A DNA stretch of 64,000 nucleotides, taken from the NCBI RefSeq assembly GCF_003334255.1, contig NZ_QOWU01000004.1; one strand, 5' to 3'. Positions 48,348 through 51,634 of the stretch are shown in pieces (position 1 is the first letter of the stretch; each line of letters begins with the position of its first letter). The stretch comes from Escherichia coli. Its GTDB lineage: Bacteria > Pseudomonadota > Gammaproteobacteria > Enterobacterales > Enterobacteriaceae. The notes below the pieces were generated by a model, which worked only from the letters and a program-made list of their open reading frames with translations, was not told where the DNA came from and did no database searches. The translations under genes were made by a program, and so were the position numbers.

Positions 48348-49586
48348 TTACTCACTGGAAACCAGTCGTGGCGTGATAAACACCACTAACTCGCGTCGTT
48401 CATCTTCTTTTCCGTCATGACGAAATAATTGCCCGAACCAGGGAATGTCGCCAAGCAACGGTACGCTATCCTGACCCGATTTATTTTTACGGGTAAAAAT
48501 GCCGCCCAGCGCCAACGTTTCTCCGCTTTTGACCTCGACCTGCGTTTCGATCTCCTGCTTATCAATCGCCAGCACTTCGCCATCGGCCTGCTGTAGCACC
48601 TGCCCCGGAACGTTCTGGCTGATGTGTAATTTCAGCCGGATGCGACCTTTTTGTAACACCGTGGGCGTGACCTCCATCCCCAGGACGGCCTCTTTAAATT
48701 CCACCGACGTCGCGCCACTTTCCCCGCTGGAAACCTGATATGGAATTTCGCTCCCCTGTTTAATGCTGGCAGGCTGAAGATGTGAGGCCAGCAGACGCGG
48801 ACTGGCGATAATATCCAGCTGCTGTTTTTGTTCGAGCGCGGAAAGCTCAAGATCCAGCAAGCGTCCGTTGATGCGCCCAATGTTAAAACCGACATGCGTT
48901 GTCGCCGTCGCTACGGAGAGGTCGCTACCAAGCGTGGTGACTTGCCCAACGCCACCAGCGTGTTGCGCATCGGCCAGCGTCCATTTCACGCCTAACTCAC
49001 GCAAACTTTTTTCATTAATGGTGACAATATGCGCCGACAGCTCAACCTGCCCGACCGGCAGATCCATTTGCGCTACCCACTGTTCAAGCGCGCTTAACGC
49101 CGTTTTGTTATCTCGTAGCAAAAGGCGATTGGTGCGTTTATCGACGGTCATACTCCCTTTGGCACTCAGTAGCTTCTCCCCCGCTTTCGCCAGTTCTCCC
49201 GCGTCGGCGTATTGCAGGGTTATACTGCGATTTTCCAGCGGCAGATTTGCCTGCGCCCGCGCCTGCTCCGCCTCCTGGCGGGCGATATTGTTATTCTGCC
49301 AGGCAATGGAATGCACTGAGAGAATGTTGCCTTCCTGCCGCGTTATCAGTCCGGCGCTTTTCACTACAGTTTGTAGTGCCTGCTTCCAGGGAACATCTGT
49401 TAGATGTAACGACACCGTACCGCTGACGTCTGGCGACACGACCAGGTTCAACTTCTCCTGTTCAGCCAGCGCCTGCAACACCTGAGCTACCGGAACGTCA
49501 TCCACCATCAGCGTCACTTTTTGCGGCTTTGCCGCCTGTACGCCGGGTATCAGCATCAACAGTAGTGCGGCTATCCATTGCTTCAT
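48348..49586 (-). CDS. hofQ: Outer-membrane secretin HofQ (412 aa)
   Basis: ORF track; signal peptide MKQWIAALLLMLIPGVQA; C-terminal secretin domain (GETLALGGIF...VPLLGDIPWFGQLF). Confidence 0.93.
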   Translation of the reverse strand: MKQWIAALLLMLIPGVQAAKPQKVTLMVDDVPVAQVLQALAEQEKLNLVVSPDVSGTVSLHLTDVPWKQALQTVVKSAGLITRQEGNILSVHSIAWQNNNIARQEAEQARAQANLPLENRSITLQYADAGELAKAGEKLLSAKGSMTVDKRTNRLLLRDNKTALSALEQWVAQMDLPVGQVELSAHIVTINEKSLRELGVKWTLADAQHAGGVGQVTTLGSDLSVATATTHVGFNIGRINGRLLDLELSALEQKQQLDIIASPRLLASHLQPASIKQGSEIPYQVSSGESGATSVEFKEAVLGMEVTPTVLQKGRIRLKLHISQNVPGQVLQQADGEVLAIDKQEIETQVEVKSGETLALGGIFTRKNKSGQDSVPLLGDIPWFGQLFRHDGKEDERRELVVFITPRLVSSE

Positions 49587-49902
49587 TTGTATCTCCTTGC
49601 CGTTGCCACAACCATTGTGGCGGTTCGCAGTTTGTCCCGGTACCCAGCGTTAGTACGTCTGGCGTCAGCTGTAAAATTGTCCAGCCGTTTTCCAGCACAT
49701 CGTTTTGCTGCACCCGTCGCCATTTCTTTTGCCCGTCTTTTATTACACCGATGATGCGCTCGCCTCGCCCTACCATCCCCTGATAGCGCCACTGGCTAAG
49801 TTCGCTAATCCGGCATAGATCTTCCGGCGGTTTAAAAGGGTCACGCATACCGGTTAAAAGGCACAATGCAATACCTGCCAACAACCAGCGTTTAACCCTC
49901 AT
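49498..49902 (-). CDS. hofP: PilP-like pilus assembly lipoprotein HofP (134 aa)
   Basis: Track ORF 49498..49941 trimmed to ATG 49902 (MRVKRWLLAGIALCLLTGM...); overlaps hofQ start by 89 nt. Confidence 0.8.
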   Translation of the reverse strand: MRVKRWLLAGIALCLLTGMRDPFKPPEDLCRISELSQWRYQGMVGRGERIIGVIKDGQKKWRRVQQNDVLENGWTILQLTPDVLTLGTGTNCEPPQWLWQRQGDTNEAMDSRTTVDADTRRTGGKAAKSDADGG

Positions 49903-50332
49903 GCGGCGTCTCCAGTTGTAGCGTGAACAAAAGATCATCACCTTCCACGCTTAACGAAAAACGGCTCACGCTGACGTTGCGCTCTGCCAGCCGTGTAAAT
50001 GCCGACGGCACTGCTTCCCACAGCGTTTTCAACGCCAACTCGCCTCCCTGCGCGGATGGATGCCAGGAAACCAGTTGCGCGCCGGATAACTGAAAATCCA
50101 GTGGCGAAAAGGGCAGCGTTTTTTCCTCGCTGAAGGGAGTGGTGTCTACCAGGCGATACAGTGCGGCCCACTGCTGGTGATGACTTGCCCGTAGTCGAAT
50201 TAATGCGTCGCGCTCTTCATGGTGTGTCGATGACAGAAAAATGAGCGTAACTAACATCAGCAACCAGAATGCCCAGCAAAGCTGGCGGAGGCGGGGTGAT
50301 GTGGCGAACCACCAGTCAAAGAACATGTTCAT
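49892..50332 (-). CDS. hofO: PilO-like protein HofO (146 aa)
   Basis: ORF track; single N-terminal TM segment. Confidence 0.8.
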   Translation of the reverse strand: MNMFFDWWFATSPRLRQLCWAFWLLMLVTLIFLSSTHHEERDALIRLRASHHQQWAALYRLVDTTPFSEEKTLPFSPLDFQLSGAQLVSWHPSAQGGELALKTLWEAVPSAFTRLAERNVSVSRFSLSVEGDDLLFTLQLETPHEG

Positions 50333-50855
50333 CGCTAACCTTCCTTGTTAACTGATACTCAAATTGCCAGCGTCCCTGCGCATCCTGCTGCGTGGCTCCC
50401 CGCTGATTGAGATGAAAAGATGCATCCTGGCGGAGTGACGTTTCTAGTGCGTTTAACGCGGTAATGCTTGTTGTCAGCCCCTTGATCTCCAGCGTTCCCT
50501 GCTGCCAGCTTATCGTTGTCAGCCAGGCGTGCTCGGGTAAAAGCGCCGCCAGTGCTTCCAGCGCAGATTGCCAGTCGCGGGTAAATTGTCGCTGGCGCTG
50601 CCGTTGCGAACGCTGTTCGCGTAACTGCTGTTGCTCCAGCAAACGTGGCTTCGTTATCTGTAAGCTGCGGGCGAGTTGTTGTTCCGCCTGAAGCAAAACT
50701 GCGTCTATGCGCGCTTCGGCGCTGCCTGTCAGACGCAGTATTAGCGTTATCCCGACGGCCAGCAGCAGAGGCGCAACGAACATCAGCAACCAGAAACGCA
50801 GAAAAGCGGTCCGGCGTTGCTGTCGCCAGGGCAAAAAATTAATTGGCGGGTTCAT
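50316..50855 (-). CDS. hofN: PilN-like protein HofN (179 aa)
   Basis: ORF track; N-terminal TM then Q/R-rich coiled-coil. Confidence 0.8.
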   Translation of the reverse strand: MNPPINFLPWRQQRRTAFLRFWLLMFVAPLLLAVGITLILRLTGSAEARIDAVLLQAEQQLARSLQITKPRLLEQQQLREQRSQRQRQRQFTRDWQSALEALAALLPEHAWLTTISWQQGTLEIKGLTTSITALNALETSLRQDASFHLNQRGATQQDAQGRWQFEYQLTRKVSDEHVL

Positions 50856-51634
50856 CAGTACGCCTTCCCAAGCGCCAGCCCCAGCGCGATGGCAAAGTCT
50901 CCACCTGGCGGCGGTAGCGGCGGCTGACGAACAGAAACGGCCTCCCAGGGATCAAATCCGCCTTCGCCACATATCGCGACGCTTTCGGGATCAACGGATA
51001 ACGCTGCCGCCAGCTCCTTCGCGCTAGTCATCCCCACCGCCAGTTTGCGCCCCCAGCTATAGCGCGTCGCCCACAGCCACTGTTCGTTATCACGCCAGGC
51101 CAGACATTGCTGATGAGAAGGTAAAAAAGGCAGGAATCGCTGTAATGCACTGGCATCCGGGGTGATCGCGCTCACATGAACACGCAACCTTTCTGCCAGA
51201 GTAAGCAGCGTTGCCAGCTCTTTGCTTTGCGCGGCAGTCACGTTATAGGCGGGACTGAGTGAGTCTTCGCTGTAATCGAAGCGCAGGGAGTCCGGATCCA
51301 TATCCAGCTCGCGGGCCATCGTCCCTGACAGCCAGGCCGTTTGCTCCCGCTCACCAAGGGACATCGACGGGCGCGGAAATGACCGCTGTAATGTGCGACT
51401 GGCGGGAAACGCCAACATAATGTGATGACGCTGCGGCAGTTCGCGACTCCACGGTAACAACGTTTTAGCCAGCTGCTGCGCATCAACAATCCGCCCATCT
51501 TTGATAATGTCGTTCTCCAGCGGCAACCGCCACCAGCGTTGCAAAAAGCATTCTTTTGCGCCCCGCACGATCGCAACCGCTACCGCTTCTTGCTGTTGTA
51601 AATGCAAACCAATTTGCCAGATCTTAAATGCCAT
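50855..51634 (-). CDS. hofM: PilM-like (actin-fold) protein HofM (259 aa)
   Basis: Track ORF 50855..51661 trimmed to ATG 51634 preceded by AAGGAG (MAFKIWQIGLHLQQQEAVAVAIV...). Confidence 0.85.
   Translation of the reverse strand: MAFKIWQIGLHLQQQEAVAVAIVRGAKECFLQRWWRLPLENDIIKDGRIVDAQQLAKTLLPWSRELPQRHHIMLAFPASRTLQRSFPRPSMSLGEREQTAWLSGTMARELDMDPDSLRFDYSEDSLSPAYNVTAAQSKELATLLTLAERLRVHVSAITPDASALQRFLPFLPSHQQCLAWRDNEQWLWATRYSWGRKLAVGMTSAKELAAALSVDPESVAICGEGGFDPWEAVSVRQPPLPPPGGDFAIALGLALGKAY

Follow-up and report, generated by a model that had tools for sequence, protein, structure and literature searches.

A 64,000-nucleotide (nt) stretch of Escherichia coli DNA (the window) carries the hofMNOPQ operon on its minus strand between positions 48348 and 51634, and the last two genes of this operon overlap by 89 nt. 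The first gene, hofM (50855–51634, 259 aa, a RefSeq coding sequence), encodes a short, diverged PilM-like cytoplasmic protein; hofN (50316–50855, 179 aa) encodes a bitopic PilN-like protein that carries the motif INFLPWR at its N-terminus, and hofO (49892–50332, 146 aa) a PilO/GspM-like bitopic protein. The product of hofP (49498–49902, 134 aa) consists of a PilP-like core (residues ~20–105) and an unconserved tail (residues 106–134), and hofQ (48348–49586, 412 aa) encodes a PilQ-family outer-membrane secretin without AMIN domains. Gene coordinates were taken from the list of open reading frames (ORFs) of the window and, after conversion to window positions, from RefSeq's annotation of an E. 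coli chromosome with identical sequence. Adjacent genes overlap by 1 nt (hofM/N, TGATG), 17 nt (hofN/O), 11 nt (hofO/P) and 89 nt (hofP/Q); the last overlap occupies positions 49498–49586 on the minus strand and corresponds to HofP residues 106–134. All five genes start with ATG preceded by a Shine–Dalgarno-like purine-rich motif: AAGGAG in hofM and hofQ, AAGGAAGG in hofO, GGAGA in hofP and GGGAAGG in hofN. A preliminary description of this DNA had proposed five minus-strand genes for PilM-, PilN-, PilO- and PilP-like proteins and a secretin, with the same four overlap lengths; the genes match RefSeq hofM/N/O/P/Q exactly, and both sources of coordinates give these overlaps.

The gene mrcA is divergent and lies upstream of hofM, and aroK, aroB and damX follow hofQ. 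A 4-kb query around the operon was 100% identical to several E. coli chromosomes and found the hof locus in 5426 of 5426 complete E. coli genomes. Compared with hofMNOPQ of E. coli K-12, this is the same locus with the same boundaries, overlaps and neighbours (mrcA, aroK-aroB-damX-dam), and no difference was seen; its genes were formerly called yrfD-yrfC-yrfB-yrfA-hofQ (b3395–b3391). The system is not new: published work already covers the operon, how it is regulated and what it does in DNA uptake. Against orthologues from Escherichia, Salmonella and Citrobacter, the ratio of nonsynonymous to synonymous substitution rates (dN/dS) is 0.03–0.25 for all five genes. These values, together with family or fold matches for every product, show that the hof genes are under purifying selection and are real, not ORFs that arose by chance.

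The whole window is collinear with NZ_AP019189.1 at 99.95–99.97% identity, and the annotation of the latter from tuf/fusA to envZ, which is collinear with the window, contains no pilin, pilus ATPase or platform gene. The earlier statement that such genes are absent from the window therefore stands. The rest of the machine (ppdD-hofB-hofC and others) is encoded elsewhere in the genome, and the partner genes ppdD and hofB are indeed reported at a separate locus, b0108–b0109 (PMC1635313).

Among the five products, HofQ is the most readily assigned. It matches the NCBIfam HofQ model NF007851 with 855 bits (cut-off 598) over model positions 1–412 of 412 and the PilQ model TIGR02515 with 449 bits (cut-off 284), and it contains the C-terminal Pfam domain Secretin (E = 4e-47) and, as N0/N1 domains, Secretin_N (E = 3e-11) and STN (E = 8e-6). 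HofQ, which passes the curated cut-offs over its full length, is thus a type IV pilus secretin of the PilQ family. N-terminal peptidoglycan-binding AMIN domains, one or more, occur in many PilQ proteins but are not universal. Residues 23–409 of HofQ align to residues 158–569 of Vibrio cholerae PilQ (6W6M, E = 2e-74), and with this alignment no HofQ residues are left to hold an AMIN domain; HofQ is therefore a PilQ without AMIN domains, which is the known HofQ/ComE short form.

For HofP, the sequence-based assignment is narrower. The protein matches the narrow Pfam family PF10748 (E = 4e-80), a HofP profile used as a protein search query returned solely enterobacterial members of PF10748, and the same profile matched PilP of 3jc8 at E = 0.005. 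The AlphaFold model, built from a 35-sequence alignment, has a core (residues 31–100) with a predicted local distance difference test score (pLDDT) of 87–94. The top ten Foldseek matches of this model in the PDB comprise eight PilP chains or entries (3jc8, 2ivw, 2lc4, 2y4x, 2y4y and 4av2), the HR domain of GspC (3oss) and LspC (7oio), with E from 2e-4 and probabilities of 0.99–1.00. The predicted structure of HofP thus has the HR fold of PilP; in PilP, this beta-sandwich HR domain is the fold that binds the N0 domain of the secretin. PilP is a lipoprotein with a lipobox (L-x-[GAS]-C). No lipobox cysteine after the signal sequence is conserved in the 35 HofP orthologues (LLTG-MRDPF), whereas the canonical PilP of the outgroup locus L090 (L090:3478-4008) has the lipobox LFVTAC, and therefore HofP may be anchored or released differently from PilP. 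Two other cysteines, C30 and C92, are invariant in HofP orthologues, which suggests a possible disulfide.

HofN matches Pfam PilN at E = 3e-9. It opens with MNPPINFLPWRQQRR (INFLPWRQQRR) followed by a hydrophobic segment, and this N-terminal motif corresponds to the (V/I)NLLPWR of PilN proteins in the syntenic outgroup loci L084–L090. The (I/V)NLLPWR motif at the PilN N-terminus binds PilM; a literature search on the PilN 'INLLP' motif found nothing. In one of the outgroup contigs (L086:265-1338), a 357-aa ORF has a PilM-like N-terminal part that runs into an INLLPWR motif and a PilN domain, and is either a natural PilM–PilN fusion or an assembly frameshift.

HofM and HofO are more diverged. 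As a single sequence HofM falls below threshold against both models of the actin-like cytoplasmic protein PilM, TIGR01175 (16 bits, cut-off 133) and PF11104 (E = 0.047); as a profile of 34 orthologues its sole meaningful matches are PilM of Myxococcus xanthus (3jc8, E = 2e-5) and of Thermus thermophilus (2ych, E = 0.007). The dN/dS of hofM is 0.12–0.23. HofO matches its own Pfam family PF25319 (E = 2e-25); the Pfam search gave no match of HofO to PF04350 (PilO), and the HofO profile had no match among PDB sequences. Its AlphaFold model (pLDDT 85) consists of a long N-terminal helix and a ferredoxin-like domain, in line with the coiled-coil helix and ferredoxin-like periplasmic domain of PilO; the best PDB folds are PulM/EpsM/XcpY (E = 0.015–0.05), with periplasmic domains of GspL also among the best; PilO folds (2rjz, 5uvr) appear at E = 0.1, in ranks 27–28.

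Comparison with pilMNOPQ of Pseudomonas, Myxococcus, Vibrio and Thermus and with comABCDE of Haemophilus influenzae shows the same gene order, strand and chromosomal neighbourhood. The likeness extends to the PilN motif and Pfam match of HofN, the PilP fold of HofP, the PilM-like profile of HofM and the PilQ membership of HofQ. The search for HofQ homologues returned only close relatives and no outgroups; the outgroup secretin loci came from a 50%-cluster search and contig look-ups. In two of these loci, L088 and L090, whose secretins are 43–45% identical to HofQ, the order is pilM-N-O-P-Q followed by aroK-aroB-dam, with mrcA before the operon in one of the two; both loci have upstream genes that match Pfam PilM_2 and PilN, and one of them also has matches to PilO and PilP. 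This shared synteny further supports orthology with pilMNOPQ. The hof products also differ from their counterparts: HofM is ~90 aa shorter than PilM and lies below the family thresholds, HofO is closer to GspM/PulM folds than to PilO, HofP lacks the lipobox cysteine and ends in a disordered tail of 29 aa, and HofQ has no N-terminal AMIN domains. The assignment of HofM, HofO and HofP as putative PilM-, PilO- and PilP-like proteins rests on profile, fold and synteny evidence. In functional terms, HofM, HofN, HofO and HofP would be the inner-membrane alignment proteins, and HofQ the outer-membrane secretin, of a type IV pilus-like machine. Family, fold and synteny tests thus bear out the initial view of a locally incomplete set of PilM/N/O/P-like proteins with a PilQ-family secretin.

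The preliminary description had placed the hofQ start under suspicion and considered initiation at a downstream codon. Among co-directional overlaps, those exceeding 60 nt are reported to be almost always mispredictions, mostly 5′ extensions of the downstream gene (PMC2478687), and in-frame ATG codons do occur at hofQ residues 11 and 27. The 89-nt overlap would then be an annotation artefact: hofQ would initiate at Leu10 (TTG), Met11 or Met27, and the true overlap would be short. We find this explanation hardly credible, since any such start loses either the charged n-region or the whole of the signal peptide that an outer-membrane secretin needs. As read from the sequence, hofQ opens with the signal-peptide codons at 49533–49586 on the minus strand, which encode MKQWIAALLLMLIPGVQA followed by AKPQ, that is, a standard n-h-c Sec signal peptide with an AXA-type site (…VQA/AK) and predicted cleavage before AKPQ. 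A Shine–Dalgarno sequence AAGGAG (49593–49598, minus strand) lies 6 nt before ATG 49586, inside hofP codons 102–104. The aligned start and the signal peptide are present in every intact hofQ locus of ~70 Enterobacteriaceae species, and the match to NF007851 begins at residue 1. The length variation in this region sits in HofP, not in HofQ. Nor can hofQ be longer, because its ORF has no start codon between the upstream in-frame stop and ATG 49586. The annotated start at ATG 49586 is therefore upheld; that it is correct, and that the overlap cannot be annotated away, is well supported by these sequence features.

With the hofQ start in place, it is the 3′ end of hofP that gives rise to the overlap. 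Conservation of HofP stops with the motif CEPxxWxWxRxG, the last two codons of which are spanned by the AAGGAG of hofQ. Beyond it, residues 106–134 contain no conserved column in the 35-orthologue alignment and vary in length between species, and residues 108–132 have pLDDT below 50 (predicted disordered). The dN/dS of the tail is 0.44–3.5 versus 0.09–0.19 for the core, and by this measure the tail is under no purifying selection.

The length of the tail can be understood from the reading frames. In the overlap, codon position 1 of hofP coincides with codon position 3 of hofQ, so hofP can terminate only where a hofQ codon with T as its last base precedes one that starts with AA, AG or GA. Only three places in the first 30 codons of E. 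coli hofQ permit such a stop (Ala19-Lys20, Val28-Asp29 and Asp29-Asp30). The actual TGA stop of hofP is formed by GAT-GAC of hofQ Asp29-Asp30, inside the conserved HofQ motif VDDVPV. We simulated recoding at 72 loci by keeping the HofQ protein of each species fixed and redrawing synonymous codons from the usage of its own hof operon. The hofP frame was open at least as far as observed with a mean P of 0.54, and the median simulated overlap for a typical locus was 89 nt. Since recoding reproduces the overlap, selection is not needed to explain its length. In this scheme, the signal-peptide codons would almost never stop hofP ahead of the conserved GAT-GAC (Asp-Asp); a spacing of 1 (mod 3) from the end of hofP conservation to the ATG of hofQ would make a read-through of ~89 nt the default; and the 29-residue HofP tail would be disordered filler. 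Judged from the sequence, the 89-nt overlap is genuine and originates at the hofP 3′ end, and we infer that the extension is neutral and lineage-specific.

The distribution of the overlap across species can be read in the same way. Loci were fetched with HofQ, and the resulting table of P/Q junctions covers 74 Enterobacteriaceae loci. The overlap is 60–100 nt in 66 of the 74 loci (62–98 nt seen within this range), 38 nt in three Phytobacter/Kosakonia loci, 122–140 nt in three loci (with both 122 and 140 among the values) and 4 nt (ATGA) in two Leclercia-like loci. The spacer from the end of the HofP motif to the hofQ ATG is 4, 7, 10 or 19 nt in the long-overlap loci and 8 nt in both ATGA loci; thus, a single base in the spacer between the Shine–Dalgarno sequence and the ATG decides between an overlap of 4 nt and one of ~89 nt. 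The other junctions are short and stable: 1 or 4 nt for M/N in most species, mostly 17 nt for N/O and mostly 11 nt for O/P. In six more distant contigs (HofQ 42–53% identical), the extremes of the P/Q junction are an overlap of 11 nt and a gap of 30 nt, in contrast to the 89-nt overlap of hof; a seventh contig has no hofP call, and a HofP-like ORF ends there shortly before hofQ. From these short junctions, the long P/Q overlap is, on sequence comparison, a derived feature of Enterobacteriaceae.

Some loci of this set are damaged. E. albertii NBRC 107761 (L004) has truncated hofO (69 aa) and hofP genes, the latter cut to 33 aa by a premature stop, and the C. koseri NCTC10786 assembly (L039) has disrupted copies of hofM and hofQ; the operon may be decaying in particular lineages. 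Public databases also contain HofP–HofQ fusion ORFs from E. coli and relatives (P0118, P0042, P0104, P0110); one example is 517 aa long (105 + 412), has 29 member sequences and carries PF10748 and secretin domains. A one-base change near the overlap may produce such fusions, which would be either real alleles or assembly errors.

These results place the hofP/hofQ pair outside the pattern described for long overlaps. Among 715 co-directional overlaps that spanned more than 60 nt, a survey found no real one, and 3′ extensions were classed as errors (Palleja et al. 2008, PMC2478687); the supplementary lists of that paper do not include hofP/hofQ. The pair resembles its category iii (3′ extension of the upstream gene) in that hofP extends further 3′ than its distant orthologues do and hofQ keeps its length. 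It differs in that the survey treated category iii as sequencing or annotation errors, whereas the hofP extension is genuine sequence, present in all E. coli genomes and stable across many genera. The hofP/hofQ overlap is therefore a genuine, though probably neutral, exception to the >60-nt rule. Overall, we consider it very probable that this stretch holds the known hofMNOPQ operon of E. coli, which is orthologous to pilMNOPQ/comABCDE and represents them in enterobacteria, and that its 89-nt overlap is real and results from neutral 3′ read-through of hofP.

Several observations weigh against this interpretation and should be considered together. HofM, HofO and HofP lie below the curated thresholds of the PilM, PilO and PilP families. 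With synonymous differences adjusted for species pair and amino acid, the observed/expected ratio in hofQ codons 2–29 is 0.75–0.76, versus 0.90–1.09 in other 28-codon blocks of hofQ, the taxa being phylogenetically dependent. Asp29, the codon that makes the hofP stop, is GAT in 69 of 75 taxa (92%), versus 71% GAT at other conserved Asp codons. The reduced synonymous variation and the excess of GAT are hints of constraint, of the kind expected if the overlap or the position of the stop were weakly selected.

On this basis, together with the retention of 60–100 nt in most Enterobacteriaceae loci, the long overlap could be thought to be selected, either for a functional HofP tail or because ribosomes elongating through the hofP tail control how hofQ is initiated and thereby set the HofP:HofQ ratio. 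We regard selection of this kind as unlikely. Neutral recoding gives the same overlap; the tail is unconserved and predicted to be disordered, with the high dN/dS given above; the Leclercia-like and Phytobacter/Kosakonia loci do without most of it; and the outgroup junctions are short. The synonymous signal is also not specific to overlapped DNA. The same ratio for codons 2–29 at non-overlapped 5′ ends is 0.25 in aroK, 0.45 in aroB and 0.36 in mrcA, and ~1.0 in hofM and hofN. We therefore rejected the synonymous-site ratio as evidence of dual coding: aroK, aroB and mrcA, whose 5′ ends are not overlapped, are constrained there still more strongly. The stronger proposal, that the conserved 60–100-nt overlap is a maintained dual-coding or translational-control element through which hofP ribosomes or the HofP tail adjust how HofQ is made or assembled, is in our estimate distinctly unlikely; if true, such an element would be a genuine, functional departure from the rule by which long co-directional overlaps count as artefacts. 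As a separate observation, the first 28 codons of aroK (47426–47947) and aroB (46281–47369) show strongly reduced synonymous variation across ~60 species.

The arrangement of the junctions also bears on translation. In reporter measurements on native E. coli gene pairs, reinitiation fell steeply with distance and was nearly gone at 38 nt, the distances being intergenic gaps made by premature stops and upstream distances not being tested; distances of −8 to +10 nt were treated as predictive of termination–reinitiation (PMC10666635). The 1-nt hofM/N junction fits this range, and the 11- and 17-nt overlaps lie just outside the range tested. Termination–reinitiation coupling is plausible at these three junctions. 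At hofP/hofQ, reinitiation is unlikely because the terminating ribosome sits 89 nt beyond the hofQ start. In the minimum-free-energy fold of the 120 nt around it, the AAGGAG of hofQ is unpaired, and this fold is not unusually stable (z = −1.8). RNA folding around the hofQ start thus revealed no significant structure hiding the ribosome-binding site, and since the fold leaves this site exposed, there is no support for coupling by unmasking. Translation of hofN, hofO and hofP may thus proceed by termination–reinitiation or close-range coupling; for hofQ, de novo initiation at the strong AAGGAG in front of it is the most economical, and most likely, reading. The tight translational coupling proposed earlier for all junctions is reasonable for those of 1, 11 and 17 nt, but does not extend to hofP/hofQ, where the stop lies 89 nt past the start and hofQ has a strong, unstructured ribosome-binding site of its own; there, a neutral extension of hofP is a better reading than a device for coupling.

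Regulation of the operon is known from the literature. Plasmid-expressed Sxy induces yrfD (hofM) 16-fold, with CRP and cyclic AMP (cAMP) required (Cameron and Redfield, PMC1635313). The yrfD promoter fragment binds CRP weakly in band shifts, and without Sxy induction the transcription of the operon is poor or undetectable (PMC1635313). Expression of sxy permits DNA uptake, and deletion of hofQ abolishes it (Sinha and Redfield, PMC3330819). According to these papers, the operon is nearly silent in laboratory culture, Sxy with CRP–cAMP switches it on, and HofQ is the outer-membrane channel for DNA entry. The term 'cryptic' in the preliminary description is thus fair, as the operon is inducible although poorly or undetectably transcribed without Sxy; the possibility that it is never transcribed, raised there as well, is answered by the induction of yrfD (PMC1635313). 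It should be noted that crp itself lies in the same window (plus strand, ~15003–15635), ~33 kb from the operon whose promoter depends on the activator it encodes; this proximity is probably coincidental.

Near silence could also mean that the operon is a decaying relic with diverged components and no present function in E. coli. Apart from the poor transcription without artificial Sxy induction (PMC1635313), such a view could draw on the sub-threshold family scores of HofM, HofO and HofP, on the truncated or disrupted genes in E. albertii NBRC 107761 and the C. koseri assembly, and on frameshifted HofP–HofQ fusion ORFs in databases. It is nevertheless very unlikely: all five ORFs are intact and their junctions conserved in most of 80 species, dN/dS remains at 0.03–0.25, every complete E. 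coli genome has the locus, and the operon responds to Sxy and CRP, with hofQ needed for sxy-dependent DNA uptake.

The control region upstream of hofM was examined for the CRP-S site. The primers used for the electrophoretic mobility shift assay (EMSA) in PMC1635313 map to 51785–51910, and the legend of Figure 4 in the same paper gives 'E.c. −246'; candidates were placed with the help of both. A scan upstream of hofM for the consensus TGCGA-N6-TCGCA gave only matches with three mismatches, and weak half-sites. The proximal candidate (51800–51821) has weak half-site matches and lies within the published yrfD EMSA fragment; the distal candidate (51881–51902) is inside mrcA, with a TGCAA-N6-ATGCA match near the published −246 position. 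The proximal candidate falls in a very conserved block (51669–51824; −35 to −190 from the hofM ATG) that covers the intergenic DNA and the first ~23 codons of mrcA and has at least 90% identity at almost every position among 76 Enterobacteriaceae loci. The 5′ end of mrcA is conserved at all three codon positions, and third-position variation returns further into the gene. This conserved block, with the proximal CRP-S candidate in it, suggests a control sequence shared by hofM and mrcA and embedded in coding DNA. Promoter and terminator scans of the region gave site counts at chance level. Directly after the hofQ stop, at 48331–48344 on the minus strand, a weak hairpin is followed by a T-rich run; terminator-like sites of this kind are no commoner than in shuffled sequence.

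Taken together, our results give the long overlap a simple cause: the relevant alternative frame of the signal-peptide codons is nearly stop-free. The flagged 89-nt overlap should accordingly not be 'corrected' by shifting the hofQ start, as it reflects a real, family-wide and probably neutral 3′ extension of hofP. The significance is modest and concerns mainly annotation hygiene: hofP/hofQ is a documented case that goes against the common rule of treating co-directional overlaps of >60 nt as errors.

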